Assembly: GCA_001793095.1 (NCBI GenBank)
Contig: MGHG01000011.1
Location: forward strand, 1 to 58,744
DNA length: 58,744 bases
Direction: 5' to 3'
Origin: Candidatus Woesebacteria bacterium RIFCSPLOWO2_01_FULL_39_23
Lineage (GTDB): Bacteria > Patescibacteriota > Microgenomatia > UBA8517
Under the pieces are notes generated by a model, which saw only the letters and a list, made by a program, of their open reading frames with translations, did no database searches and was not told where the DNA came from. The translations under genes and the position numbers were made by a program. This document shows positions 33,001 through 50,273 of the stretch, in pieces; position 1 is the stretch's first letter; each line of letters opens with the position of its first letter.

Positions 33001-34149
33001 TTCAGATTCTTCATCAAATTTAATTACCTCTTTCTCTTTAAATACGTTTTCGACAATATTACCAATCGAATCCAGCTTAGTTTCCCCCAAGGAATTTTGA
33101 TATAAAACAGGCTCGTTCTTTTCGACCGTCTTACCGGCGCCAGAGGTCGCAAAAATCGCCATGTTACTGTTTTCCATTGAGTAGCGGTCAAAGATGATGA
33201 ACGAGTCGTTTAAGGGATTAATCCCGTATAAAACCCCCGAGTCTGAGGAAAGCTCCGCCGAAGTTAATGGAAACGTAGTTGAAAGAGACGTCGTATCCAT
33301 GTTTCTTGTAATATTTAATCTGTCGGTTGCAAATGGCAGGGTTGAGGAAAAGCCGTTTTCCATGTCGAGCACTGCGGTTTGTGCTGCCACGAGAACCGAC
33401 CCTAAAGTTGACTGTACTTGCTTTGTAACATCATTAAGATCATCCAGTGATCTCGCCGGAATGGTTATATAAAAAGCAAATTCATAAAAATGCTCGGCAC
33501 CCTTTACGAGCTCTTCCTGTAGAATTCTTGCATCGTCTAGTTTTGCCTGTGTTGAAGCATTAACAATTCTTCCGCGTTCCAGGTCGGTAGCAATTTCCGC
33601 TTCCATCTCCGCGATCTTATGTCTTAGGTCTTCGAGTACGCCTTTCGCCTCAATAGGATAAACATAGAAGGAAATATCAAGGGAGCTGTCAAAGTTAATG
33701 ATTTGTTCCAACCATCCCGGCGAAACAAATCTGGGGTAACCGGAAATAAACAGCGTTCTGAAAAAGATGTCGTTTATTTTTATAAAATCAAAATCGATCT
33801 CAATTGTTCTCGGAGCAAGCACATCCAGTAAAGTCATGCCCTGCTCGGCGATTGCTTTATTGGGGTCCATTATTTCCGGCTTAGTTTCGTTGGCAATCTC
33901 GGGAGAAATGGGAACGTCCGGTTTTACTGGTAATGGTTGGCTCTGATCCTTTTTACTGAGGCTGAACTTTGAAAATATACCGCTCTTTTTTTCAGTTATT
34001 GTTGTGGGATCCACGAAGTTGGGTATTGGAGGGACGGCCGTTTGTTGAATTTTGGCTTCCGTCTCCACGGGTTCAGTGTTGTCGAGCACTTCTTTCTGCG
34101 CTTTATCGACGCTTCCCTTTTTCTTTTTTAGAAAATCTAAAACTGCCAT
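30100..34149 (-). CDS. VirB4/TraE-like T4SS ATPase containing an intein
   Basis: Exteins join to give Walker A ATSGAGK|SYFVK; IIDPE.EY; Walker B LLVVDEAW; RKY...L..ITQ; GEG. Predicted spliced product about 735 aa. Confidence 0.92.
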   Translation of the reverse strand: MAVLDFLKKKKGSVDKAQKEVLDNTEPVETEAKIQQTAVPPIPNFVDPTTITEKKSGIFSKFSLSKKDQSQPLPVKPDVPISPEIANETKPEIMDPNKAIAEQGMTLLDVLAPRTIEIDFDFIKINDIFFRTLFISGYPRFVSPGWLEQIINFDSSLDISFYVYPIEAKGVLEDLRHKIAEMEAEIATDLERGRIVNASTQAKLDDARILQEELVKGAEHFYEFAFYITIPARSLDDLNDVTKQVQSTLGSVLVAAQTAVLDMENGFSSTLPFATDRLNITRNMDTTSLSTTFPLTSAELSSDSGVLYGINPLNDSFIIFDRYSMENSNMAIFATSGAGKTVEKNEPVLYQNSLGETKLDSIGNIVENVFKEKEVIKFDEESEGVVKPNIKVLSFNDSLKAKWSVVTVAARKKSPKTLYKITTKSGRAITTTKDHNFVALERGLIKVVRGDAIKTGSYLPLAKRVLYDSRSQKYISVEDTLQKVGADFLYVSNNRIKHPHHGTTKSIPRKINLNSGFFRLLGYFASEGMVIPKRALISSCTHEVLEDAHEFYSTMKINYSLVKKSGKLIGIYTSNHLFSKFLKVIGASGKANEKRIPEIVFSASKKHAAEFLKAYFEGDGGVEKHEISATTKSKGLASDLSYLLLRFGIITRTRTAKKAATNTKNKTKHTYYRLRISGQDNIREFINNISFISKEKNLKTKRLLKKGNTNVDVIPELQPIFKEIYDVLYSSSEIPAPKKFSEIKLGIFKPSSKNLLSIIEHVEERIKEIEDLERDGLLTLRNLPPVQEILKEGEDKTLNTLLWKNLGKSWWTIKNGCPPKLNTALRAAAVTHGYDYSASDVTGAIHRTFQKTGESLSCFNYSLWTALINANQNPLYESVINARDYISQKYQEKKAGLQRIKEKINFLKTLATSDLFWDPVVKIKKFESKDKYVYDLQVENEVFLAGHGGLFVHNSYFVKLESLRSLMLGTEIIIIDPEAEYKDLSEAVGGQYITFAYSSPSKINPFDLSQVYEEGENQLGLKILSLHSLFKVIMGTLSATQEALLDHALIETYRGKGITQDSASQTKEPPLMEDLYKTLVGMETDEAMDLAARIEKFVKGSFVGIFDQQTNVEINNPFTVFSVKEVQDALRPIAMFIILDFIWTKVKRDLKRRLLVVDEAWHMMRYADSAQFMWSIVKRARKYYLGLTTITQDVEDFLSIDIGKAIVTNSALRVLLKQSPAAIDKVGDVFYLSQGEKQLLLGANIGEGIFFAGNHHVPIYIVASPEEHKLITTRPQELLARQKDIPPAETVVEETKSKDSLGKESIPAWRIAQENEIPAEEGVKDDTPPVLGPQTDKTPEVDVFKKDDK
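31288..33129 (-). mobile_element. 614-aa intein with LAGLIDADG (DOD) homing endonuclease
   Basis: Starts TVEKNEPV after Walker A Lys. Block B TTKDHNF; endonuclease motifs LLGYFASEG, FLKAYFEGDG, LLLRFGI; blocks F/G VYDLQV...LFVHN; +1 residue Ser. Confidence 0.9.
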
Positions 34150-34852: not shown

Positions 34853-35899
34853 TTATGTTTTGAATTGGTTAATTTCTGTACTTCCTGATTTTGCCCATAT
34901 CGCAACGGGAGGAATTATTTTGTCTTGTGCATCAAAATAAACCTGGTCAAATTCAAAACCGTCCTTTTCGGTAATTATTTCATACCGACCATCGAGAAGG
35001 GGTGTGGCAATCGAAAAATGACCCAACCTGTTTGTTTTAAGAGCCCTGACAGGCCTGCCTTCTGAATCTCTTATTTCCAGGATTGCACCCTCTATTATTT
35101 TCCCGTCAGGTGCTAAAACTTGGCCGACGATAATATTGGCGCGGGTTGGCGGGATGGGAGGCATTTCGTCTTGCGAGAACTGAGCCATTTTGGTTGCAGT
35201 AAAAGAAGTTGTCGCCATCGGCGTAAAGGAGGGGGGCGTTGTTTCCATCTTTGGCTCTTCCTGTGTTTTTTGCCACCGGCTCTGGAGAGCCTCAGGCTCG
35301 GAGAGCCCTTTGTGTATCACTGTGGTTGATTTTGTTTGTGGTACGTTAATTGCAGCTCCACCCCGTACCGGCTGGCCGGGTCGATATGTATGCAGTGGTG
35401 TTGCTGTTATGACGACAGTTGTTCCCGGGGCAATAAAATTCTGCGTCATTTTTGACAAAAAGCTTTTTTCTTTTTCTTCGAGTTTCTCGACGCTTGGCGT
35501 TGTCTTAATGACAGGCTCTAGTAGTTCGGCTCTTTCTTCCTTTTTTTCAGCTATGACAACCGCCGGCGCTCCTGCAGCCCCTTCTTCCAGAGCAAAAAAA
35601 TCTTTGATTCCGCCCTTTCTCCAAACAAAGTACGTAGGCGAGTAGATGGACCGGAAAAATATAACAATCCAGGTTGAAAGCGCCCTGTCCTCGATCGGCA
35701 GAAATGCGAGCGCAACACCGAACATAAAAGAAAGAATTATTAATGGCCATTTAATTAAAGAGTGCAAGGGTGACGCATAAAAAAGAAGTGAAATTAGAGC
35801 TCCGCCGGCAAGTTGCGAGAACTGCTTAAGAGTCATATCTCCCACCAGCTTAAAGCTGTATGAACTTATTTGCTGCGGAATTGGGTGTTGTTCAGGCAT
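34853..35899 (-). CDS. PrgI family protein with long linker and C-terminal carboxypeptidase-regulatory-like beta domain
   Basis: HPIPQQI..Y.FKLVG.MTLKQF, two TM helices, PIEDR.L..W; C-terminal G.V...G.....A...I.D..G......TN..G.F. ATG 35899 preferred. Confidence 0.82.
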   Translation of the reverse strand: MPEQHPIPQQISSYSFKLVGDMTLKQFSQLAGGALISLLFYASPLHSLIKWPLIILSFMFGVALAFLPIEDRALSTWIVIFFRSIYSPTYFVWRKGGIKDFFALEEGAAGAPAVVIAEKKEERAELLEPVIKTTPSVEKLEEKEKSFLSKMTQNFIAPGTTVVITATPLHTYRPGQPVRGGAAINVPQTKSTTVIHKGLSEPEALQSRWQKTQEEPKMETTPPSFTPMATTSFTATKMAQFSQDEMPPIPPTRANIIVGQVLAPDGKIIEGAILEIRDSEGRPVRALKTNRLGHFSIATPLLDGRYEIITEKDGFEFDQVYFDAQDKIIPPVAIWAKSGSTEINQFKT

Positions 35900-35907
35900 T
35901 GTATTTA

Positions 35908-35941
35908 GAGCATAAGAGTAAAAGAGTGGAAAAGTATAAGG
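35908..35941. repeat. 8-nt tandem repeat array at the 3' flank of the four-helix gene
   Basis: gcataaga gtaaaaga gtggaaaa gtataagg; inverted relative to 36345-36382. Confidence 0.6.
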
Positions 35942-35967
35942 AAATCCACTCCTACACAAATTACCTT

Positions 35968-36342
35968 TTACTTTTTATTCCTTAAACTTTTTTGGTAACT
36001 GAAAAGTAATTTTCTTACTTCTATCAAGAGGTTTGAAATTTCATTATAGTCGCCATTCTCCAGATATTTAAGATCGAACGCAATGTCTATTTGAACAGTT
36101 AATTCCAAGGCTGAGGCGATGCTTATATTAATGAACCGGACAAATTCTTTACGAGTCCGAAAATAACCTTCAACAATATTTGAGACAATTGAAATTGCGG
36201 CTCGGCGAGATTGTGGAATTAATACGAACTTTTCCTCAATTGGAAATAGCTTCGTTAGTTTATATGTTAATAAAACCAAATCTTTGGATTTTTGATAAAC
36301 ATATAATTTTTTATAAGATTGAATGTTGATTTTTTGCTCCAT
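35968..36342 (-). CDS. Four helix bundle protein (TIGR02436 / 23S-IVP / bAvd-like)
   Basis: SYKKL.VYQKS..L....YKLT..FP.EE.F.L..Q.RRAAISI.SNI.EG, F..FINISIASA.EL..Q..IA.DL.YL. Confidence 0.9.
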   Translation of the reverse strand: MEQKINIQSYKKLYVYQKSKDLVLLTYKLTKLFPIEEKFVLIPQSRRAAISIVSNIVEGYFRTRKEFVRFINISIASALELTVQIDIAFDLKYLENGDYNEISNLLIEVRKLLFSYQKSLRNKK

Positions 36343-39348: not shown

Positions 39349-41040
39349 TTATTTGCCACCTAACTTTCTCTTCCACCTTTGGAGTCCATATAAGCGTTCT
39401 TCTCTTTCTTCTTGTAATCTACCTAGCATACGATAGTGGGTAGGTGTAATACCAGGAGTTTTCGACATTCTCTCGAGTCTTGTGAGTTGTTCTTGTGTTG
39501 CTCTTTCTCTTCCACCAAAATAAGCCCCAACACCCTTACCATATGCATATTTACCAGTCCCCAGAGCATACCCCAATCCGCCCGCAAACATAGCATTAAC
39601 ATCTTTACCTAAATCTCCCGCGCCTTCAACTCCTTTACCGCTCATAAGCGATTTAACTAAATCTCCCGCTTTGGGTATCATAGCAAAAATTCCGATGGCA
39701 GCAAAGGTCCAAAGTATGGGAAGCGGATCCCAATTTCTGTCTGCTGCCTGCGTCCCGAATGTAATGGGCGGGTACCAGAAATATTGAGTTGTTTCGAAGG
39801 GTGAGCTTACGCTTATAGTTGAAGTTCCTCCTGCTGAAATCATGGTGGACAGCGAGTCTCTTACTCCGGTATATGTCGCAGCTAAAAAGAAAATAGAAAG
39901 TATAAATAGTATTCCGACAACGGGGTAGACCAATAGGTTGGCAATGATACCTCTCAACCACGGCCAGAAACCCCCACCCGGAGTTAGCGCACCGAACCCG
40001 ATAATTAGCGGGGCAAAAGTGACGGAAATAAGTATACTTAGATAAGTTCTGATTAACATGATAAAAATTCTAAAGCAGGCTAAGAAAAGCCAAACTAAAA
40101 TACCTGCAACAATAAACCAGCCCAATATCCAGGCAATTGTTCCTCCCACCCAATTTAGACTCCAGATGCTTCCTGCAGCATTCATGATTGCGTAGTAGAC
40201 AGGGCCGATAAATCCCCAGAACCATCCGAGTAAGCCTATTGGTACATCACCCGGCCCAGTAGTCATTAACCTGAAAACATCCGCCCACTGGGCACCTCCA
40301 AGGAAACCAAACTGCAGAATAATAAAAGAAAATATCCCTATAACGACATAAATTAGGTCTACCATAAATCCCGCAATAGCATAAGAGAAAGTTATTAGTA
40401 TAAGGGTAATTAATATCCTAGGCAGAGCTGACTGAACCGTGACGACTACTTGGGGGGAAATCTTCATTCTAAACATAATCATAAACGCAAACGCTATTAT
40501 GACGACTATAAAGAGACCATACATAACATCTCTGCTACCCTTCCAAACTTTTTGTACCGGAGACAGGGCGCCAAAACCGAAACCTTGAGCCCGAGCTTCG
40601 GGTACGGGTAAAAGTTTTAAGTCAGTTATTTTACCTCGGACATAGGATACTCCCGAGAAGCCCCGTTCGGGATTAAAGATTGTTGCAAATACTCCGCGAT
40701 TTTCTTGTTGTCTAGCCGCACTTGCGGTAAAGAGAGGATTCTCGTTTAAGCAGGTTGTAACATCGCTTCGCATGGAACAAATAATACCGTTTGTATAATC
40801 GTTAGAGGTCAGAAGAAAGGATATTAAACCGAAGATGACCCATTGAACCTGGGCCGCTGTATAACGTTCGCCGAAAATTTCTTCAGGTGGGGATGCGTTA
40901 GTATCGTAAACTTTAGTCACCCATTGCCTGTATGTTTGTATATACCATGGGTTAGTGTCTTGGGCATAAACATAAGACGACCCGATAGACGAGAAAAGAA
41001 ATATTACTAAGGAGGCGGTTGCAATTAATTTTTTAATCAT
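39349..41040 (-). CDS. TrbL/VirB6-like polytopic membrane protein
   Basis: Signal peptide (VYA|QD), W...RD..Y.LF....IAF..MIM, ALPR..I..ILI.FSYAIAGF.VD, several TM helices. ATG 41040 preferred. Confidence 0.75.
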   Translation of the reverse strand: MIKKLIATASLVIFLFSSIGSSYVYAQDTNPWYIQTYRQWVTKVYDTNASPPEEIFGERYTAAQVQWVIFGLISFLLTSNDYTNGIICSMRSDVTTCLNENPLFTASAARQQENRGVFATIFNPERGFSGVSYVRGKITDLKLLPVPEARAQGFGFGALSPVQKVWKGSRDVMYGLFIVVIIAFAFMIMFRMKISPQVVVTVQSALPRILITLILITFSYAIAGFMVDLIYVVIGIFSFIILQFGFLGGAQWADVFRLMTTGPGDVPIGLLGWFWGFIGPVYYAIMNAAGSIWSLNWVGGTIAWILGWFIVAGILVWLFLACFRIFIMLIRTYLSILISVTFAPLIIGFGALTPGGGFWPWLRGIIANLLVYPVVGILFILSIFFLAATYTGVRDSLSTMISAGGTSTISVSSPFETTQYFWYPPITFGTQAADRNWDPLPILWTFAAIGIFAMIPKAGDLVKSLMSGKGVEGAGDLGKDVNAMFAGGLGYALGTGKYAYGKGVGAYFGGRERATQEQLTRLERMSKTPGITPTHYRMLGRLQEEREERLYGLQRWKRKLGGK

Positions 41041-41096
41041 AAATTGACTTATTTTTAATTCTACCACACTACATTATTAGATACGCAAGGATGTAT

Positions 41097-44000
41097 TTAT
41101 AGACATCTAGCTAAGTCGCGTACGCTTGTTTCATAGCATGCATATTGATTCGCCTCGCACCACGGCGTTGCGCCAAACCTGGGATCCTGTTCGCACACTT
41201 GTTGGCTATCGCAATAGCCTAAATATTGCCTAGCGGCTGTAATAATATCGGAGTCCGACCAACTACAACCTGAACCAGTTCTAGTTCCGGTATTTAAACG
41301 TACCCCCTCGCACGTTGGATAACCTGGTGGATTGCAGATTGCAGTATAACCGTCCCAGCCGGGACTTCCGTTAAGTAACTTTCTGGCTGCCGCAAACGTT
41401 GAATCGAGTAAGTTGCACCTATCCGGAATTCTGCCGTCGTTTATGCCTGTTCCGCCATTGTCGAAAACTGCAGCATCCGGTCCCGTTTTCCAACCGGTGG
41501 GTAAAAACTGCCATGGCCCAGCAGCGCCTGACTGGCTTACATTATAAGAATAACAATTGGGAACTTGGCAGTTTGGCCCGCTGGACTCTAAAACCAATTG
41601 GTCAGTCCAATCGAATCTGTCAAACCCGCCTTCGTTATAGAATACTCCCACTAGCAGATTTGCGGGTACATCGTAATATGATGCAGCTGATTCAAATATT
41701 TGCTTCATGAGCGGCGGCATCCAGGAGTCGTATTTTGAGCACATTTGGCAGTCTTGGACGGGAGGTAAATTAGGTAATACAGCAGTGCATGTACCCACAC
41801 CTGCCGATGATGTATCGGATAATATTTGATAACCATAACCCTTTGGCCGTAATATGCCCTGAATTCCAGTTAAGAAATATTCTTTTATGCCGCCAATATG
41901 CGGGAAGTACAGTTGCGCGCCGGATCCCGACCTTAGGTTTCCGGGGTTACCTGCATAAACAGTTCCGTCACTACTTGTGTAGTTAACGCTTGTAGAACCA
42001 GGTATATCCCAAATTTCTGAAACTGCACTTCCGGATGCGACCTTGGGAAAAATTCTTCTGAACACGCTCGAAGAGCCCGCCACAAGCCTTGACCAGATAT
42101 TGTCTGCAAGGGGCGTTTGGGTTTCAAGACCCATGTTAATATAGGAAAAAGTAGAGCACGACTGTGTTGAGGGGGAGGCTTCAACTGGCCTTTGACAAGA
42201 AGTTGAATTTACACACTTAAAATAAGCACTAGGATTACAACTTGTATTTGGAATTGGAGTACAATCTGGCGCCGAGTTAAAATTGGTTGGAACACATATT
42301 CCATATCCATCGCATCTGGCATGACTAATAAGTGTAACTTGTTCTCCGGCTACACATATATAACCCAAATCGCAATCATACCTGCCGTAATTTACTTCTG
42401 TGTAGAGATCAGGAAACGGATCTGGTATACAAGTTCCTCCTGCCAACTTCTGACATAAGTTGCCATAGGGAGCAGGGTTAGGCTGTTGATCCCCGTTTCC
42501 CCACACATAAAAATTACACGCCACCTGAGCCGTGTAACTTACACTTCCCGACAGACCTCCTGCGAAAATATCGTCACCTGGATTGGTTCTTGCTTGAACA
42601 ATATCGCAGTAGGGAGACTCAGGTATAAAGGTTGCGTCAGTCATGTTGTCTTTATCGGCTCCTTCCGGAATATAGGTATTTTGCAGTGCGTCAGCCAAAT
42701 CTCTTCCTTCTTCCATATGGGGGATAAACATATCTGCCGGTGGCACATTGCTTACGTCTACGCTAATCAGGCGAAATTCGGGGGAAGCAAAAGAATAGGA
42801 AGAACTTTTAACATTTATTTCTCCAAGTCGGTCTTCGGTTGAAGAAAAGAGAACATTGGAGAAAAAATTAGACCAAAAATTAGGATTAAGAGGATCATCA
42901 AAGCACCAAAATACTGTACGGTTGCCAAAGATTGCGAACGGTATTGTAAGCTTAAAACAGAAAAGTCCCCGCCAAGCGTAATAATCCGATAGGAAGTTAG
43001 AGTAGTCTTGGCCGATATAGTCTTCTTCCAGGGGTGGCTTATGATCGTTCCAGCCAGAAAGTCGAAGTTGCCTTTCGCCAATTTCAACCGGGCCAATAAA
43101 GGGGAGGTTGATAGTGAAGAGGGGGGTTCTACCGACAATTTCATCATGTCTTTCTTCGGAATTTTGGGTTCTCGACCTATTTGCGCTGTCGACTTCTCGA
43201 ATCCTTTCGCCTGATTGTATTGTAAAAGGCAGTAATTTTCTTATCGGGCCGGAGTAGTTAATAACTTTGTCTCTATCAAGAATATCAACAGGGTCTCCTG
43301 ATACGCAGCATGCAGCAGGCGTCAAACACATGGGACTTTGATCAACAGTAAGATCGTCGTTGGGGTGTGTGGGGGGAATGAAAAAAGGATTTCTTTCCAT
43401 ACAAACTCCATTCTCATTGAGCTCAAGGCATTTACCGGCCGACCCTGTATTTTGACCAATACAGTCGTTATCTGCGTCCATTGGGGGATATTCGGCCTTG
43501 TTAATTACACCATTTAAATACCAGCTTACATATTCGTTAATCTTGTCATTGTCGGTTAAGGTTTCATCACCGTTGTACTGGTTGATTACACTAGGATTAC
43601 CTGAACCAGTATTTCCGATTGAGGGTTCTGTATAACCCATGACGGGGAATTTTGCTCCAGAAATATCTATAGAGAAACTTTTATCACCACTTATAGTAAA
43701 TGAACAACTTTCTATACCCTCACCAATATTTAAGCAACCTCCGCACTCTGCATTTGTAGCGCATTGGTCAGCATCTGGTATACATGGTTCTGTATTTGTG
43801 ACACATTGGCCGCTTGTGTCGCAGTAGTGACAAGCGTTTGAAATGGGATCGAATGGTGGGTTGGGTTCTATATCAGACCCTCCAAAAGTATAAGAAGGTG
43901 TGGGGTTCGGGGCTACTCCGAAATTTTTGACAATCGAAACACTATCGCTTAAAACCAAATCATTTCCACAAAATAGCGCTAAATCTTCTTTGTTTGGATT

Positions 44001-44990
44001 ACACGGACTGGCTTGGTATGGCCGAAGAGAGTGAAATTCTTCATCTGTAAAAGAAGAATCTTCGGGAGCAACTGCGTTACAGGGAAAGGGATATTCTGCA
44101 GATCCGGTTCGGAATCTAGGTCTGGCTTCTCCCGATACCTGTGCGGGAGTGGGTTGGGGAGGTTGAATGCCTGCGCCAACACAATCACCCGCACACACCC
44201 CTAAATGATTGGCGACTTTCCGTTCTGCTCCATCCGAGGGATTATTTTTTATGGTATGTCCATTCTCAGAAGTAACCAAAGTGCTGGAGCCGCCTCCGTC
44301 CATATTGATTGCAGACTCCGCTTGGCAATTTAGCATCATATCAGCCAATTCCTTGAGAGTCACTCCCGGACTATCAACGACCATCAATAAAAGAGTATTA
44401 TTAGAAGCTTTTGCTATCGCGGTTCTGGGATGCAGGTTTGTGCAATAGACTAATGGGTCTTCGCAGTTATTTATTTTTGCGCTCATCACTCCGTCTTTTA
44501 CGAGCGTGTGTCCTCCCGATATGGCGCTCCATTGATTGCCGGGGTTAGTAAAACCTACCGGTTCGTTAAAAAAAGTAACGCCGTTATCTTGCGAGATATA
44601 AATTGAGGGCTCTCCTGATGCATCCGAATAGACATCTCCGTTATAAGTAGCTAGGCCAAGTGGGTCATATATTCCCGGAATAGAGTAATCGCCATTAACG
44701 GCTACACTAGCTCCGTTGTCTAATAAAAAGGTACTTGTATATACTCCAAGACCATCTCTCGGAGTTACGGTTAAATCAATATTCGGGTCATTAAGATCAG
44801 CTTTTACTATAAACCACTTTAGTGTTCTGGGAGAGATTGTGGATTCTTCTTTGTAAGTGATACCAGGGAAAAGTTGACTGAAACCATTAAAGCAGTTAAA
44901 AGTAGGTCCTTGGGCAAAGATAACGTTTATCGAAGCTAAAAATAGCAGTACGAAGATAATTAAACTGGAAAATAACCGCATCTTGGGCAT
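41097..44990 (-). CDS. Secreted multidomain protein: phosphodiester glycosidase (NAGPA/DUF2233-like) + Cys-rich regions + C-terminal lytic transglycosylase-like domain
   Basis: Signal peptide (IFA|QG); AVNGDY, HPRTAI, L.ELA..M, AINMDGGGSS; C-terminal VPANLLVGVFYNEGG and SQSGAAGPWQF. Confidence 0.8.
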   Translation of the reverse strand: MPKMRLFSSLIIFVLLFLASINVIFAQGPTFNCFNGFSQLFPGITYKEESTISPRTLKWFIVKADLNDPNIDLTVTPRDGLGVYTSTFLLDNGASVAVNGDYSIPGIYDPLGLATYNGDVYSDASGEPSIYISQDNGVTFFNEPVGFTNPGNQWSAISGGHTLVKDGVMSAKINNCEDPLVYCTNLHPRTAIAKASNNTLLLMVVDSPGVTLKELADMMLNCQAESAINMDGGGSSTLVTSENGHTIKNNPSDGAERKVANHLGVCAGDCVGAGIQPPQPTPAQVSGEARPRFRTGSAEYPFPCNAVAPEDSSFTDEEFHSLRPYQASPCNPNKEDLALFCGNDLVLSDSVSIVKNFGVAPNPTPSYTFGGSDIEPNPPFDPISNACHYCDTSGQCVTNTEPCIPDADQCATNAECGGCLNIGEGIESCSFTISGDKSFSIDISGAKFPVMGYTEPSIGNTGSGNPSVINQYNGDETLTDNDKINEYVSWYLNGVINKAEYPPMDADNDCIGQNTGSAGKCLELNENGVCMERNPFFIPPTHPNDDLTVDQSPMCLTPAACCVSGDPVDILDRDKVINYSGPIRKLLPFTIQSGERIREVDSANRSRTQNSEERHDEIVGRTPLFTINLPFIGPVEIGERQLRLSGWNDHKPPLEEDYIGQDYSNFLSDYYAWRGLFCFKLTIPFAIFGNRTVFWCFDDPLNPNFWSNFFSNVLFSSTEDRLGEINVKSSSYSFASPEFRLISVDVSNVPPADMFIPHMEEGRDLADALQNTYIPEGADKDNMTDATFIPESPYCDIVQARTNPGDDIFAGGLSGSVSYTAQVACNFYVWGNGDQQPNPAPYGNLCQKLAGGTCIPDPFPDLYTEVNYGRYDCDLGYICVAGEQVTLISHARCDGYGICVPTNFNSAPDCTPIPNTSCNPSAYFKCVNSTSCQRPVEASPSTQSCSTFSYINMGLETQTPLADNIWSRLVAGSSSVFRRIFPKVASGSAVSEIWDIPGSTSVNYTSSDGTVYAGNPGNLRSGSGAQLYFPHIGGIKEYFLTGIQGILRPKGYGYQILSDTSSAGVGTCTAVLPNLPPVQDCQMCSKYDSWMPPLMKQIFESAASYYDVPANLLVGVFYNEGGFDRFDWTDQLVLESSGPNCQVPNCYSYNVSQSGAAGPWQFLPTGWKTGPDAAVFDNGGTGINDGRIPDRCNLLDSTFAAARKLLNGSPGWDGYTAICNPPGYPTCEGVRLNTGTRTGSGCSWSDSDIITAARQYLGYCDSQQVCEQDPRFGATPWCEANQYACYETSVRDLARCL

Positions 44991-45047
44991 CCTGCATAGT
45001 ATAACATGTGCCAGACACACCTTGAATTTATTTGTATAAAGAAGTCA

Positions 45048-45368
45048 TTACTGGTTTACTGTGAAGGTTGTTACGTTGGCGCCCGTGAATGTTTGAATTA
45101 GAACTAGTATTAGGAAGGCTAGAGCTATTACTAATAATCCACCTACTGCGTAGGTAACTATCTTTCTTGCTGCTTGAGCTGCCTCTGGATTGCCTCCAGA
45201 TGTCATTAACTTAAATCCTCCAACAATAAGCATTGCAAAAAGGGCAATTCCGGCAAAACCCAGAATTGTGGTAACAATGTTATTAAATATCCACTCAAAA
45301 CCCTTAATGGTGGCTACACCGTTAATTACTTCAGAGCCTTCTATCGGATCTCTTTGTGCAAGATACAT
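45048..45368 (-). CDS. VirB2/TrbC-like pilin 1
   Basis: Two TM helices around GGFKLMTSGGNPEA...ARK..TYAVGG. Confidence 0.82.
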   Translation of the reverse strand: MYLAQRDPIEGSEVINGVATIKGFEWIFNNIVTTILGFAGIALFAMLIVGGFKLMTSGGNPEAAQAARKIVTYAVGGLLVIALAFLILVLIQTFTGANVTTFTVNQ

Positions 45369-45395
45369 ATCTATAGTTTAGTATATCTGCTAAAC

Positions 45396-45426
45396 AAAAA
45401 AAAGCGGCTCGGAAGAGCCGCTTTTT
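45396..45426 (-). terminator. Bidirectional intrinsic terminator after pilin 2
   Basis: AAAAAAAAGCGGCTC-GGAA-GAGCCGCTTTTT. Confidence 0.8.
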
Positions 45427-45446
45427 CCTTAAAAGGACAGATCCCC

Positions 45447-45764
45447 TTATGATCCAGGAATATTAAATCCTCTTAAGTTGACTCCAAAGAAGCTCTCGAT
45501 GAGAGTTAGTATTGCCCAAGCGGCAAATACTATCACGAGACCTACCAAACCGGCTGTAATTTGATTTCTTGCAGCTTCTGTTTTCCCTTTATCCCCACCC
45601 GAGGTGATCCATTTGATACCTCCCAAGACGAGTATAAAGAAGAAGGCGATTGCCGCGACGATTAAAACAAATGAAATTGCCAATGTAACCAAATCGCCAA
45701 AGTTAATATTCGTTAAATTTGTAAACTCGGCTGGTGGTTGTAGGTTAATATTTTGTGCCAGCAT
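45447..45764 (-). CDS. VirB2/TrbC-like pilin 2
   Basis: GGIKWITSGGDKGKTE.AR.QITAGL.GL.IVFAAWAI. SD-like GGGGGTG places the start at ATG 45764 (MLAQ). Confidence 0.85.
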   Translation of the reverse strand: MLAQNINLQPPAEFTNLTNINFGDLVTLAISFVLIVAAIAFFFILVLGGIKWITSGGDKGKTEAARNQITAGLVGLVIVFAAWAILTLIESFFGVNLRGFNIPGS

Positions 45765-45828
45765 CTTTTTTTCCACCCCCTTCCGTCTAATATAAATAAA
45801 TATATTATCCGTTTTTCAATAAAATAAT

Positions 45829-46185
45829 TTATAGTGCAGGACCAGGGCCTCCACCCCCGGGTAATCCAACGTTAAAGCTTCTAAGATTTACACCGAAGAA
45901 GTTTTCGAGTATGGATATGATCGCCCAAGCGGCAAAAACGATGACCAAACCGATTAGACCGGCTGTAATCTGGCTTCTTGCAGACTCCGTTTTCCCTTTA
46001 TCCCCACCCGAGGTGATCCATTTGATACCTCCCAAGACGAGCATGAAAAAGAATGCAATCGCTGCAATAATGAGAACAAAGTTTATCGCAAGGGTAACAA
46101 GAGTAGTAAAATCTATATTCGCAAGGTTGCCAAATTCGTCCGGAGGAATTAAATTAATTTGATTTTGTGCTAAAAGTTGATTCAT
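45829..46185 (-). CDS. VirB2/TrbC-like pilin 3 (close paralog of pilin 2)
   Basis: Same motif as pilin 2; GAGGTG SD upstream. Confidence 0.85.
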   Translation of the reverse strand: MNQLLAQNQINLIPPDEFGNLANIDFTTLVTLAINFVLIIAAIAFFFMLVLGGIKWITSGGDKGKTESARSQITAGLIGLVIVFAAWAIISILENFFGVNLRSFNVGLPGGGGPGPAL

Positions 46186-46270
46186 GTTTATTAAATATTC
46201 ACCTCACTTACATCGTATTATTCTACAAAATCTGCTTTTATGTCAAGTGGCTTGGTTTTTTACAAGTCAC

Positions 46271-46651
46271 CTAAGGCGGCGGGGCAATTGTATTTATATA
46301 GTTAGATGGATTTAGAATGTCTTCAAATCCGACCAGTATGCCGAGTATCTCGGCGAGGAAAAGGGCTGCGACAACTATCGTAAGTCCGACAACTCCGGAG
46401 ACCATTCTCGATCTTGCTTCGGCGAGTTTGCCTTTATCTCCACCCGAACCCATCCAGGCAATACCTCCGGAAATCAGTAAGAACATAAACCAGATGCCGG
46501 CGACTAATGTCAGAATACCTACAATTGCAGTAAGAATAGAGCTAAAAAGTGCGGGTGAGTTACTTGAGGCTTGTCCCTCTAGCCCATACGTGCCAACTCC
46601 ATTTAACCGCGGACCAATAGTTACTTGTACTTGTGCGATTATTTTTTCCAT
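46271..46651 (-). CDS. VirB2/TrbC-like pilin 4
   Basis: GGIAWMGSGGDKGKL.EAR.RM..GVVGL.IV. Confidence 0.82.
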   Translation of the reverse strand: MEKIIAQVQVTIGPRLNGVGTYGLEGQASSNSPALFSSILTAIVGILTLVAGIWFMFLLISGGIAWMGSGGDKGKLAEARSRMVSGVVGLTIVVAALFLAEILGILVGFEDILNPSNYINTIAPPP

Positions 46652-46652
46652 A

Positions 46653-46997
46653 TTAAGGACCGAAAACCTTTAATTGTAGGAGAGCATTGAAATCATTGAA
46701 AAGAAGTTTACCGAATATTCCGGCTAGGACGAAAGAGCCGACAGCAACAAGAAGTCCGATCATAGTCTGCCAGATTTTTGCCCAAGCAGCGGCTATTTTT
46801 TCCGGATTGCCGCCGGCAGACATGAAAGCGTAACCTGCGAAAATAATATTAAAAAGAGCATAAACACCGGCAATCACAATAATTGTTTTTATAATATTGC
46901 TCATAAAATTTGACAGGGCACTTACGTCTCCCCCATAAGTTGAAACTCCCGGTGGAGGATTGACATTACCGAATACTTGCGCTATATAATTTTGCAT
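46653..46997 (-). CDS. VirB2/TrbC-like pilin 5
   Basis: AGYAFMSAGGNPEKI..AW.KI...MIGL. Confidence 0.82.
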   Translation of the reverse strand: MQNYIAQVFGNVNPPPGVSTYGGDVSALSNFMSNIIKTIIVIAGVYALFNIIFAGYAFMSAGGNPEKIAAAWAKIWQTMIGLLVAVGSFVLAGIFGKLLFNDFNALLQLKVFGP

Positions 46998-47003
46998 ATT
47001 AAG

Positions 47004-47324
47004 TTAAAAACCCGGATTTATTATATTAGTATAACCCGTAATTAATCCTACTATTTTTATCAGCCAATAGGAAGTGAAGATTATAAAAAAACCCAATATG
47101 GCTGCAGTTGCAGCTTTTCTACCCTTGGCAATGTCGTCTTTGTTGCCGCTCCCGGCGCCTACCATCATTGATATGCCCCCGAAGATAAGAAGAATTAGAA
47201 GCATCACACCCGCAATGGCCACTGCGTTTGATAGGATTACCGATACAAGATCTGCAAAGCCTTTGCCTTGTCCCCAGACAGAATTAAAAGTTGGTCCTAT
47301 ATCTACTTGTGCAATTATTTTCAT
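47004..47324 (-). CDS. VirB2/TrbC-like pilin 6
   Basis: GGISMM.GAGSGN......GRK..T.AILGF.IIF.SYW. Confidence 0.82.
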   Translation of the reverse strand: MKIIAQVDIGPTFNSVWGQGKGFADLVSVILSNAVAIAGVMLLILLIFGGISMMVGAGSGNKDDIAKGRKAATAAILGFFIIFTSYWLIKIVGLITGYTNIINPGF

Positions 47325-47330
47325 ATTTAG

Positions 47331-47906
47331 TTAAAAAATTGAACTTATCTGTCCGATTCCTAAAATAATTGCAGCTATTTTAACCACCCAGTATGATACA
47401 AATATTATAATAAATCCTACTAAAGCCATGGTAATTACCTGTTGTGCGCTTTTGGCGTTGTCTGGGTTGCCGGCTGATAATAAAAATTTAAATCCTCCGT
47501 AAATTAAGTAAACAAGAAGGACTAAACCAATTATAGGGAAAATGTATGTTAAAAGGAGACTAATGATATCACCAATTGTTGTTGATTGGGTGAAGAATAA
47601 TTGTCTTGGTTGAGGAATGGGTTGGATTATGCGATATAAACTACTCCAGTTAATGCCGCTACAAACGCAGGGTATGTTTTGATTTTCAGGAGCTGTACAA
47701 GCTGTAGGATTATTATCAAACATATCACAGCTTCCAACTTCACAAGGATCTACACAGTTGCCCGTAGCAATACAGTCTTCATCACCCGCAAGAAGGCATC
47801 TATAGTATCCTTCGGCTTGGGCTAGGGTGGGCTTTGAAGAAGATAAGAATAATGCTAATAAAAGTAGTCCCAGAAGCATAACCTTTATTTTAACAAGTTT
47901 AAGCAT
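47331..47906 (-). CDS. Pilin-domain protein 7 with signal peptide and 8-Cys N-terminal module
   Basis: PTLA|QA; 8 Cys; C-terminal GGFKFLLSAGNPD.AK.A...IT.A.VGF. Confidence 0.82.
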   Translation of the reverse strand: MLKLVKIKVMLLGLLLLALFLSSSKPTLAQAEGYYRCLLAGDEDCIATGNCVDPCEVGSCDMFDNNPTACTAPENQNIPCVCSGINWSSLYRIIQPIPQPRQLFFTQSTTIGDIISLLLTYIFPIIGLVLLVYLIYGGFKFLLSAGNPDNAKSAQQVITMALVGFIIIFVSYWVVKIAAIILGIGQISSIF

Positions 47907-47933
47907 AGATATAATTAATATTAATGATTCTTA

Positions 47934-49094
47934 TTATAAACCTGGAATCCTTAAAATTCTTATTCCAAATAAATCTAAAATAAATACTGAAAAAATAATC
48001 AGTAAAAGTCCGGAAACGGCAGCCGTTAACAGTTCTTTACCGGCCTGAAGTTTTTGTTTATCTCCTCCGGACGTCATAATCAGAAAACCGGCAAAGATTA
48101 TTAATATCATGGCAATACCACCACCAATCCCCAGAGCCCACTTCAGGACGAATGCAAGGAAATCGTTCTGGCTGCTTACGGGAATGCATCCTATTGCTGT
48201 ATATATTCTTCCCAGCTGTCCTGGGGCAGGAGTAGCTGTAGTGGGGTTACCATATGAATCACAATAATAAGCAAGCATGGGTCGGGGAGTAATTGGTAAT
48301 GTTGGGGTGGTAGCGCTACAATCACAATCATATGTTCCGATTATGCAAGTAGGTTCTCCTATACCGCCAGAGCAATTAATTGGATTGCAACCCGGCACAC
48401 AATTATTATCGCTTACATAACAACTACTCCCGCCGCCAATTGAGCAGGTAAATGTGTTTGAAGGCATGGGGGTGGGGGTGACACAATAACCTCGTGGATT
48501 AAAAGCATCGGCGTCACAAACTAAACCAGCAGTACAGTTAAGCGGTGCGTCTGCCCTACTCGGGGGACAAGTGTCTGGTGGAATACCGTGTTGTATACAC
48601 GAATTACTAACATCACAATAAATGTAATTGTTATTACAACAATAAAAGGGTGTCGGTGTAGGTATGGGTGGAATTGGTGTAAGGGTTGGTGTTATTAATG
48701 CGGTTTGGGTCAAACAACAGGGAGTTGCTTCATCGAACGTGTTTCTACATCCCGCATCGGGTGCCCCTTCGTAGCTATAGGGAGGTATAGGACACGCTCG
48801 AGTATTCAAGGGGTCGTCATGATTGTAGTATATACAATAGCCGCTTTCATTTACTGTACCTTCGTAGCAAAGTTCGCTATTGGGATCAAAAGTGCCAGAG
48901 GGTACACAGCAGTATTGTAATGGACATTCTGTGTCTGGGTCGTTTATGTCCTCGTAGCAGTTACTTGCACAATATCCCGGCCGACCGTCTACGTCGTAGG
49001 AACATGCATTTTGAGCTTTAGCGTACTTTGAAGTCATAAGTGTTAGGAATACAGCTAGAGGTAATATAATTAGATAAAACTTTTTCAACATCAA
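47934..49094 (-). CDS. Pilin-domain protein 8 with large Cys-rich passenger
   Basis: AKA|QN; 30 Cys by hand count in modules separated by Pro/Thr linkers; C-terminal TAIGCIP...GF.IMTSGGD...GKELLTAA. Confidence 0.82.
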   Translation of the reverse strand: MMLKKFYLIILPLAVFLTLMTSKYAKAQNACSYDVDGRPGYCASNCYEDINDPDTECPLQYCCVPSGTFDPNSELCYEGTVNESGYCIYYNHDDPLNTRACPIPPYSYEGAPDAGCRNTFDEATPCCLTQTALITPTLTPIPPIPTPTPFYCCNNNYIYCDVSNSCIQHGIPPDTCPPSRADAPLNCTAGLVCDADAFNPRGYCVTPTPMPSNTFTCSIGGGSSCYVSDNNCVPGCNPINCSGGIGEPTCIIGTYDCDCSATTPTLPITPRPMLAYYCDSYGNPTTATPAPGQLGRIYTAIGCIPVSSQNDFLAFVLKWALGIGGGIAMILIIFAGFLIMTSGGDKQKLQAGKELLTAAVSGLLLIIFSVFILDLFGIRILRIPGL

Positions 49095-49130
49095 CTTGAG
49101 TTTAGCACCGTTATATTGTGTGTTACAAGC

Positions 49131-50273
49131 TCAAAGGCCCGGAATTCTTAAGATTCTCAGGCCTATCACATCGAGAAGGTATACTGAAAATATAATCATC
49201 AAAAGTCCCATGATCGCTGCAGTTAATAATTCTTTCCCAGTTTTTGCTCTTGCAGGGTTCCCGGCCGATGTCATTATCATGAACCCCGAGAGAATTATTA
49301 CAATAAATGCGATTCCCCCACCCAATCCTATTGCCCAAGGAAGAATGAAAGAAAGAAACTCTGTTTGATTTGCAACAGGTATACATCCTACCGCTGTGTA
49401 TATTCCTTCCTGGCCATATCTGGTACAGTTAACACTTAACATTGGTCTGGGTGTTAATGGAAATGCTTGTCGGTCTATACAACAAGACATACCCAATGGA
49501 CAGCCGATTGTGTCATGGGGGGGATTTATACCATCCCAATCTCTGTCTGGAGGACAATTGAGGTAATAGCAATTCCCAGGTAAGTCCGTAAAATAACCAA
49601 TACAATTATTGGACGGTTGACATGTCCATACGGTACTATCAAAACAACCTCCACCTCCCGGTCCGCCGAAACCACTGCAGCTATCGGCGCATAAGGGAGA
49701 AAGCTTATCAACTGCCGTGCATTTTTTTTGAGCTAAAGCCGAGCAATAATTACCGGATGGGGATGGATCAGGGTCGACGTAGCAACAGGATGGTGCAACC
49801 GGAGGAATATTAAGGTCGATAACAAATTGGCTATAGCCATATAAAGTCTGTTCGTCATGAGATCTAAGCTCTATTGTGTAAAAACCTGCACCAGGAAACC
49901 AGGGGGTATCTGCAGTCCATCCATTATCAATATAGTTTGGAGGAACTATAACTTGAAGGTTATTAACGGGTATATCGACTGTTTCCGGCCAAAGAGTAAT
50001 ATATTTATGTATTATATAGGGTGTACCACTCGGATTGTATGTAATTTTCAGGATTGGGTCTGGAGGACAGCTCTGATTTGTACAAAGTAAGCTATCGTCG
50101 CAATTTTCGATATATATTGTACGCGCTTCGGATAAATTAGCAGTACTCGGTGAGGTTGTAAGAACACAGGCAAACTGAGCATAAATACTTGAAGGAAAGA
50201 GTGTTTTTATTATTATTAAACTAAAGGTGAAGGTAAAAAATGTGCAGAATATATTTCTAAGTAAGCTCTTCAT
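49131..50273 (-). CDS. Pilin-domain protein 9 with beta-rich and Cys-rich passenger
   Basis: IYA|QF; 20 Cys in the mature part by hand count; C-terminal pilin domain paralogous to pilin 8 (both end RILRIPGL). Confidence 0.82.
   Translation of the reverse strand: MKSLLRNIFCTFFTFTFSLIIIKTLFPSSIYAQFACVLTTSPSTANLSEARTIYIENCDDSLLCTNQSCPPDPILKITYNPSGTPYIIHKYITLWPETVDIPVNNLQVIVPPNYIDNGWTADTPWFPGAGFYTIELRSHDEQTLYGYSQFVIDLNIPPVAPSCCYVDPDPSPSGNYCSALAQKKCTAVDKLSPLCADSCSGFGGPGGGGCFDSTVWTCQPSNNCIGYFTDLPGNCYYLNCPPDRDWDGINPPHDTIGCPLGMSCCIDRQAFPLTPRPMLSVNCTRYGQEGIYTAVGCIPVANQTEFLSFILPWAIGLGGGIAFIVIILSGFMIMTSAGNPARAKTGKELLTAAIMGLLMIIFSVYLLDVIGLRILRIPGL

Follow-up and report, generated by a model that had tools for sequence, protein, structure and literature searches.

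The window examined here is a 58,744-nt stretch of Candidatus Woesebacteria bacterium RIFCSPLOWO2_01_FULL_39_23 (contig MGHG01000011.1, positions 1 to 58,744). Three adjacent genes within it, p9, p8 and p7 (47331-50273, minus strand), encode proteins that by their sequence are VirB2-like pilins of a type IV secretion system (T4SS), each carrying a Cys-rich head in front of a pilin anchor. We infer disulfides, incorporation into a pilus and binding from these sequences, and consider it probable that the headed pilins are exported, oxidised, held in the membrane by their hairpin and shown on the surface or on the T4SS filament, with the heads serving as binding elements for a host or target cell. 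An earlier note on this DNA, made from the letters alone, had read the same genes as shuffled disulfide-rich modules fused to pilin anchors, and had taken the modules for hypervariable, knottin- or defensin-like adhesins displayed on the pilus for host recognition. The fusion to pilin anchors and the modular shuffling stand, with the anchors now assigned to the VirB2-like rather than the type IV pilin class; the other parts of that description are taken up below.

Layout of the headed pilins

The three proteins share one layout, in which a signal peptide is followed by an acidic, Cys-rich head interspersed with Pro/Thr linkers and, at the C-terminus, by a pilin hairpin of two helices. All coordinates of this gene row refer to the minus strand. 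The first gene of the row encodes p9 (49131-50273; 380 aa), whose signal peptide (residues 1-32, 50178-50273) is a hydrophobic N-terminal stretch that ends in IYAQ and contains one (C10) of the 21 cysteines, leaving 20 in the mature protein. A distal domain with four Cys follows (residues 33-160, 49794-50177), which judging from its sequence is probably β-rich; a word-index search returned no homologue of it besides p9 itself, and by eye it resembles repeats in the head of a pilin from another locus (L010). Next come an 8-Cys module that starts with a CC pair, delimited by its spacing (residues 161-220, 49614-49793; CC-12-C-7-C-9-C-3-C-10-C-7-C), and a 6-Cys 'neck' module of the WDGINPP subtype (residues 221-268, 49470-49613; profile match at 49470-49610, E = 2.2e-14). 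A linker, a two-Cys loop (C283-C297) and the pilin hairpin complete the protein (residues 269-380, 49134-49469).

The open reading frame (ORF) of p8 (47934-49094) gives 386 aa from a TTG start; an ATG at 49091 gives 385 aa, a form on record on 23 contigs, and is the more likely start. The 30 Cys of p8 fall into blocks of 12 (residues 31-127), 8 (152-204), 8 (217-259) and 2 (278 and 303), separated by Pro/Thr-rich linkers. The first block comprises module 1a (residues 28-66, 48897-49013; C-10-C-3-C-10-C-4-CC; profile match at 48900-49010, E = 3.7e-10) and module 1b (residues 67-130, 48705-48896; six Cys, C-10-C-13-C-14-C-9-CC). Module 2 has eight Cys, a CC start and Pro/Thr linkers on either side (residues 152-207, 48474-48641) and, like 1b, was delimited by spacing. 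Module 3, with eight Cys, a C-x-C end and the spacing 7-6-3-4-8-6-1 (residues 213-262, 48309-48458), was defined by a spacing test, alignment and a hidden Markov model (HMM), and the linker, two-Cys loop (C278-C303) and pilin hairpin (residues 263-386, 47937-48308) by AlphaFold2 (AF2) modelling and alignment. The NCBI gene calls for p8 are only 154 aa (P0134) and 114 aa (P0135) long, whereas JGI, ENA and Logan carry the 385-aa form; because the NCBI calls truncate p8, its Cys-rich head is invisible in that annotation. The smallest of the three, p7 (47331-47906; 191 aa), consists of a signal peptide (residues 1-30), a single 8-Cys module with the spacing 7-5-3-4-9-9-1 (residues 31-85, 47652-47816) and the pilin part (residues 86-191). 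On ORF translation the hand counts of the earlier note (blocks of 12, 8, 8 and 2 in p8, 8 Cys in p7 and 20 in mature p9) proved exact.

Assignment to the VirB2-like pilins comes from Pfam PF18895 (T4SS_pilin, gathering score 26.6 bits), which matches all nine pilins of the array to which p7-p9 belong. In hmmscan p7 (34.6 bits) and p8 (30.6 bits) score above the gathering score; p9 reaches 24.7 bits there and 28.2 bits in a six-frame search of the genome, with the match at residues 305-367. Over their last 179 aa p8 and p9 share 48% identity (E = 2e-44), bearing out the earlier view of these pilin domains as close paralogues, and in BLASTP p7 is colinear with p8 from module 3 through to the C-terminal end. 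Pairs of transmembrane (TM)-like segments lie at residues 114-132 and 157-175 in p7, 321-339 and 355-373 in p8, and 315-333 and 349-367 in p9, and the loop between the two helices is short, basic and Lys-rich (SGGDKQKLQAGKE). An AF2 model of the p8 anchor (residues 270-380) has a disulfide-closable β-hairpin at 296-305 and helices at 309-340 and 346-380, at pLDDT 82-97 overall and 90-97 in the helices. The TAIGCxP motif and the Gly positions are nearly invariant in an anchor alignment of 123 sequences. A Foldseek search with the p8 model returned only generic helical hairpins (14-3-3, ferritin), none of them significant. We rejected a type IV pilin identity for p7-p9: that class is marked by a prepilin motif G/(F/M)xxxE with one hydrophobic helix behind it, whereas the signal peptides here are of the ordinary Sec type, end in AQ and are combined with a helical hairpin at the C-terminus.

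VirB2-type pilins have their termini outside, as known from the F-pilus structure, and their basic loop faces the cytoplasm and the pilus lumen. With this N-out/C-out topology a head at either end would be extracytoplasmic, and the genome contains both arrangements. A second locus, on contig C12 (137530-142355; 11531-16356 of locus L015), encodes three more PF18895 proteins of 705, 483 and 403 aa with 44, 28 and 18 Cys. Here the pilin hairpin is N-terminal and a Cys-rich, PT-linked head C-terminal, and one of the proteins has two hairpins. These heads have common modules of their own, with ends of the form ...DWTxCxC and starts of the form CSDTDGG, and the genes lie upstream of recA-recX, far from the T4SS genes. 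A signal peptide is required for N-terminal heads alone and is found with these alone, which supports the N-out/C-out topology. Across the genome, heads of 60-600 aa are thus found on three of the nine array pilins and on the three C12 pilins.

The six plain pilins of the array (45048-47324) start with just 5-8 residues ending in (L/I)AQ, and the headed pilins carry full signal peptides, also ending in AQ. The contrast fits a need for Sec targeting solely by the large N-terminal heads. It also bears on the proposal that the Cys-rich region is a pro-region or leader removed during pilin maturation, so that the mature pilin would be plain. VirB2 and TraA have unusually long leaders that are cleaved, and with the short M-x-(L/I)AQ leaders of the plain pilins this gives the proposal some footing. 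Against that, p7-p9 lack an AQ-type site between the head and the hairpin, a part bound to be discarded would be a costly place for folded modules and conserved Cys frameworks, and the C12 paralogues carry their heads at the C-terminus. We regard removal of the head as very improbable.

Cysteine pairing and module families

To assess Cys parity, we combined p7, p8 and p9 with the 120 best p8 homologues, removed the h-region of the signal peptides and kept the 117 proteins with a recognisable signal peptide. The mature Cys count is even in 111 of the 117 (binomial p = 4e-26), extending to the whole family the even numbers first noted in the window; among ordinary long ORFs of the same genome 44-64% are even, a range set solely by the cut-off. 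Head counts, with the conserved two-Cys loop excluded, divide 57:46 between 0 and 2 mod 4, which makes the unit a Cys pair and not a Cys4 metal site. The genome (1.13 Mb, 99% complete) also encodes an oxidative folding pair on contig C2 (10711-12006; 1246-2541 of locus L001), where the gene for a DsbA-like protein with a membrane anchor, a thioredoxin fold and a CPAC motif immediately precedes that for a DsbB homologue with CRLC. Of the DsbA/DsbB-VKOR components that the earlier note had suggested looking for, this adjacent pair is present and VKOR was not found in the genome. Two more Thioredoxin_4 proteins are encoded at C7:5509-5964 and C2:18678-19067.

The heads therefore have all that marks an extracytoplasmic disulfide protein, an export signal, an even Cys count and an oxidative folding system, and together these make disulfides by far the best reading: the head cysteines almost certainly pair, as the earlier note had supposed. 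The high density of Cys and the CC and CxC motifs could suggest binding of metal, as Zn or Fe-S, instead. The heads are, however, exported behind Sec signal peptides in a genome with Dsb genes, their counts are 2 mod 4 as often as 0 mod 4, no His accompanies the Cys, and the spacing fits disulfide-rich mini-domains, so we hold metal binding to be extremely unlikely. The sole p7 variant on record (P0132, on one 704-nt ENA contig) has a G49C change within its 8-Cys module, which makes the Cys count odd; it has been seen once, and an error of sequencing or assembly is the probable cause. Elsewhere in the genome, contig C9 (49293-60772) encodes three proteins with type IV pilin-like N-termini (GFTLIE) and 8-10 Cys each, and an 846-aa secreted protein with 38 Cys; disulfide-rich surface proteins are accordingly not restricted to the T4SS pilins.

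Single-module phmmer searches against 128 related proteins gave nothing significant (p7 module against p8 module 3, E = 1.5), and module families were found by Cys-pattern regular expressions, followed by alignment and HMMs. The first family is a 6-Cys module of the pattern C-x8-12-C-x2-5-C-x8-20-C-x3-7-CC, in which an invariant Gly stands two positions ahead of the second Cys; in an alignment of 22 modules (A2) positions C4, G13, C15, C20, C38, C44 and C45 are invariant. Copies occur as p8 module 1a (residues 31-63), as the last module of p9 (residues 224-265) and at least 23 times in 19 relatives, with up to three per protein. The CPxxxCC-type motifs picked out by the earlier note in p8 (CPLQYCC) and p9 (CPLGMSCC) turn out to be the C4-C5C6 end of this common module. 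A subtype with WDG(I/F)NPP and GCPLLxxCC, carried by p9 and eight relatives, is invariably placed immediately ahead of the anchor, ending some 110 residues short of the C-terminus. Module 1b of p8 was missed by the 6-Cys HMM and, from its Cys order and an SGYC motif only, is possibly a divergent copy.

We searched a profile of the 22 copies against 1.84 billion representative proteins at E <= 1e-3 and obtained just 23 matches, all but two with a visible pilin anchor; the two are P0145, whose sequence ends before any anchor, and P0148, a borderline match. The module was also absent from 400 other sampled genomes of the class. Taken together, these searches describe a module that is narrow and patchy in distribution and essentially private to pilins.

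The second family is an 8-Cys module of the pattern (Y/F)xCxW...C...C-x3-5-C-x3-4-C-(D/S)xF...C...C-x-C, with nine copies in p7, p8 module 3, P0001 (two), P0003, P0014 (two), P0019 and P0036. An HMM built from these found weaker and less complete matches in P0048, P0076, P0017, P0091 and P0011 (E from 4e-7 to 1e-4 in the 128-sequence database). The likeness in spacing between p7 and p8 module 3, noticed earlier despite their different residues, is real: at an L1 distance of 5 the two are closer than any of 2,108 further 8-Cys windows taken from 127 related proteins, and spacings drawn at random from the family's own distribution reach this distance with a probability of 4e-5 per window, or about 1e-3 over the 23 windows of p8, which argues against chance. 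The 8-Cys module has no relative in Pfam or the Protein Data Bank (PDB), and is unrelated to the 6-Cys module (hhalign probability 0.4%). Module 2 of p8 has no significant relative among the related proteins; like p8 module 1b and the CC-initiated 8-Cys module of p9, it is left unassigned to a family. The module HMMs matched no other ORF of the genome, including the 1307-aa neighbour of the array and the C12 heads. Since both families recur in differing numbers and positions in relatives, the earlier note's 'shuffled modules on pilin anchors' is a fair description.

Its comparison with knottins and defensins fared less evenly. The modules of p7-p9 have no Pfam match to the inhibitor cystine knot (ICK) families. 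The relative P0006, in contrast, has two C-6-C-6-CC-4-C-9-C repeats before the same pilin anchor that match Toxin_35 (E = 6.5e-10), so knottin-type modules exist in the family, though not in the window.

Several lines of comparison point from the 6-Cys module to β-defensins. The β-defensin consensus, as we take it, has six Cys ordered C-C-C-C-CC, paired C1-C5, C2-C4 and C3-C6, and a conserved Gly ahead of the second; the module shows the same order, with its Gly two residues ahead of that Cys. Its first inter-Cys loop, at 8-12 residues, is longer than we take that of β-defensins to be. Searched against the PDB, the profile matched only two entries, 6mjv, a human β-defensin, at E = 0.18 and 2k2z, the tick carboxypeptidase inhibitor, at E = 2.2, the latter composed of two β-defensin-fold repeats (PMC6339383). 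The best Pfam values were E = 0.026 for PF00711 (Defensin_beta) in one of the 22 modules and E = 0.0076 for PF13841 (Defensin_beta_2) in one of 123 proteins; none of these Pfam and PDB matches is significant and all lie below curated thresholds. In the structure prediction that had been suggested as a check, AF2 confidently modelled the p9 module from the 22-sequence alignment as four strands, with pLDDT 84.5 and pTM 0.66. Foldseek found 12 PDB matches for this model, of which the top seven and eight in all are β-defensins, including hBD-3 (probability 0.84), hBD-2, hBD-1 and the avian AvBD2, AvBD7 and AvBD3; these have TM scores of 0.41-0.64, rmsd of 1.3-3.3 Å and E values of 0.46-6, so that none is individually significant, and AF2 may simply have recognised the Cys pattern. 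The profile, Pfam and model lines do agree; the predicted fold of the 6-Cys module is β-defensin-like, and 'defensin-like' survives in this sense of resemblance.

The resemblance does not extend to charge. All 22 6-Cys modules are anionic (net -1 to -6); scored together with the nine 8-Cys modules the range is -1 to -8, and the heads have a pI of about 4.1. β-defensins are secreted cationic peptides, whereas these are anionic domains of a membrane protein, and a cationic secreted antimicrobial peptide was ruled out as a class for that reason. The heads could still be defensin- or knottin-type effectors, acting as membrane or wall toxins or as enzyme inhibitors presented to the host cell on the T4SS. 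The likeness of the 6-Cys module to β-defensins and the tick carboxypeptidase inhibitor, the ICK/Toxin_35 repeats of P0006 and the large secreted wall hydrolase encoded by the adjoining gene would all suit such a role, which we nonetheless judge improbable because the modules lack the cationic character of antimicrobial defensins and are covalently tethered, with no obvious cleavage site before the pilin.

A bolder proposal concerns descent. Trans-defensins are described from vertebrates and some invertebrates, and bacteria are described as having cis-defensins only (PMC11561630). The 6-Cys module might be truly related to the animal β-defensins and big defensins, as a prokaryotic branch of the trans-defensins in which the fold, anionic and tethered to a pilin, serves for recognition and determines which hosts episymbionts of the candidate phyla radiation can use, in place of a VirB5 tip adhesin. 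We consider this doubtful; if the likeness did reflect common descent, the accepted view of the origin of the fold would change.

Variation in the heads

Relatives of the anchor occur in Woesebacteria, Daviesbacteria, Dojkabacteria and unclassified Patescibacteria. A set of 221 p8 homologues matches only its last ~23-35%, at 55-79% identity, and in front of this shared part the heads of homologues range from 80 to 398 residues and from 0 to 56 Cys. Most heads (88 of 107) have at least 6% Cys; a few carry β-helix, Ig-like or other domains instead. Of 30 other genomes belonging to the same family or order, 28 have the p8/p9-type anchor, encoded in open frames of 104-499 aa; a single 6-Cys head and repeat heads poor in Cys are among the examples. 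The proteins most similar to p7 (48-59% identity) are plain pilins of 105-129 aa that lack the module, which makes the p7 module a lineage-specific graft.

For p9 a full-length relative, P0140, is available, with 41% identity overall. Identity increases towards the anchor, with 29% for the distal domain, 38% for the 8-Cys module, 46% for the neck and 66% for the pilin part, and with the Cys framework kept, including all eight Cys of the 8-Cys module. Within the population the picture is different: the region is complete in at least 12 metagenome runs and, with contigs of four further runs, letter-identical in at least 16. The heads are variable between genera and invariant within the population. 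'Hypervariable', as the earlier note had it, applies to the former comparison and not to the latter. That note had also named invariance across relatives as a sign against its reading, and the answer is similarly divided, with modules that vary between genera next to a well-conserved p9 neck and an unvarying population.

We rejected hypervariability driven by a diversity-generating retroelement (DGR). No RVT_1 reverse transcriptase was found in the 99%-complete genome, the region has no template/variable repeats, its sole direct repeats being the pilin paralogues, and it is identical in at least 16 runs. A gene for a 23S-rRNA-IVP/bAvd-like four-helix protein lies within the T4SS cluster (35968-36342); in a genome without a reverse transcriptase it is not part of a DGR.

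The pilin row and the proposed role of the heads

Downstream of p7 the array continues with the six plain VirB2-like pilins mentioned above (106-126 aa, all PF18895), and the next gene encodes a 1307-aa secreted wall hydrolase with a NAGPA domain and 54 Cys (41097-45020; PF09992, E = 1.9e-32). It is followed by a 572-aa polytopic membrane protein (39349-41067) with a signal peptide and six TM-like segments and no Pfam match, which from its position and topology would be VirB6-like, and by a PrgI/VirB3-like protein (34853-35959; PF12666, E = 0.0025). A VirB4-like ATPase (30100-34149; TraG P-loop, E = 2.6e-26) is split by an intein with a LAGLIDADG domain (Intein_splicing, LAGLIDADG_3), and an M23 peptidase-domain protein (28124-30097; PF01551, E = 6.9e-11) would take the role of a VirB1-type wall hydrolase. 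The nine array genes and the T4SS and hydrolase genes lie on one strand in an operon-like row, separated from each other by about 1-85 nt. A scan of the region for promoters and terminators found sites no commoner than in shuffled sequence. Its best σ70-like site (TTGACA-18-AATAAT, 11/12; 46217-46246, minus strand) falls in the 85-nt gap between plain pilins 3 and 4 and may be an internal promoter, in a scan that overall did no better than shuffles. Array and row together are a monoderm-type T4SS with a VirB2-like pilin array, as already described for Patescibacteria.

In the account that we favour, the usual short outward N-terminus of a VirB2-like pilin would be replaced by a Sec signal peptide and a large acidic head, in which Pro/Thr linkers string together small modules that are each locked by cysteines in even number. 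Once exported, the modules would be oxidised by the membrane-anchored DsbA-like/DsbB pair, and the hairpin would anchor the protein in the membrane in the VirB2 orientation, both termini facing outward and the basic loop inward. The T4SS would recruit the headed pilins, along with the six plain ones, to a pilus or surface structure with the heads outward, where the heads would act as protease-resistant binding modules for the surface of a host or target cell, in the role of the missing VirB5- or PrgB-type adhesins. Such heads would evolve by gain, loss and duplication of modules and by rapid divergence of loops on a fixed Cys scaffold, fastest distally, and would be the parts of the cell likeliest to touch the host.

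A number of observations weigh against this account. A 250-aa head on each subunit would crowd a VirB2-type helical filament, so that headed pilins might be incorporated only as minor subunits or stay in the membrane throughout. Of PF18895 pili a review states only a 'potential to elaborate conjugative pili' (PMC12857230), and no such filament has been observed. The p9 neck is conserved about equally to the region adjacent to the anchor, as would be expected of a structural element no less than of a binding one, and the identity of the region across at least 16 metagenomes gives no sign of ongoing diversifying selection in the population. When the whole of p8 was modelled by AF2 from a 123-sequence alignment, only the anchor was modelled and the heads stayed below pLDDT 50.

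In a rival reading the hairpin would be a mere membrane anchor and the heads would belong to stalked surface proteins that span the wall or S-layer, unpolymerised, and act at the cell body or at the mouth of the T4SS channel. Large heads are hard to place on every subunit of a VirB2-type filament, the headed pilins of C12 lie by recA/recX at a distance from the T4SS genes, and the conserved neck module and the linkers are stalk-like. Yet p7-p9 come first in a tight row with six plain pilins and the T4SS core, and the nearly invariant Gly and loop positions are kept beyond the need of a simple anchor. We consider an anchor-only function unlikely, while giving it real weight, and continue to prefer display of the heads by the T4SS.

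Pilin arrays of this kind are known. VirB2-like arrays of 2-11 variable genes near virB4 are reported from Microgenomatia and Saccharimonadia (Quinonero-Coronel et al. 2025, PMC12102498), and those of Patescibacteria share with the present one the Pfam family, the tandem layout, the virB4/virB3/virB6-like neighbours, the low identity between paralogues and the class Microgenomatia. They differ in that the published accounts, in the passages matched by term search, describe small divergent pilins and make no mention of Cys-rich heads, signal peptides or defensin-like modules (PMC12102498, PMC12857230). According to the first, no PrgB-type adhesin was detected in Patescibacteria, and VirB5 in just one rare Gram-negative-type system (PMC12102498). 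In Southlakia epibionticum, the one genetically tractable Patescibacterium, the T4SS and its six-pilin array are essential (Wang et al. 2023, as summarised in PMC12857230).

Solved VirB2-type pili have the same two-helix hairpin with a basic loop facing the lumen, encoded beside the T4SS core, whereas their pilins are about 65-75 residues long when mature, have no extra domain, and leave adhesion to a separate tip protein, VirB5. Tandem pilin paralogues likewise occur in Bartonella (Trw) and Anaplasma, where they are thought to widen the range of host surfaces recognised (as cited in PMC12102498); variation there is in the small pilin itself, whereas here it is in appended disulfide-rich modules. 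Among other parallels, the 6-Cys module shares its Cys order and Gly with animal β-defensins, and of the knottins Toxin_35 is matched by the family member P0006 but not by the modules of p7-p9. While the array and the T4SS are thus known, neither the large modular disulfide-rich heads nor the pilin-private, β-defensin-like 6-Cys module is mentioned in those parts of the literature that matched our term searches.

The two loci together imply that VirB2-type pilins tolerate large fusions at either of their outward ends, which bears on how, and whether, they polymerise in a monoderm cell. For host finding, the headed pilins offer a concrete and testable candidate for the recognition element. Being small, stable, disulfide-locked domains that could be expressed alone, the heads might also be used as probes with which to find the hosts of uncultivated Microgenomatia.

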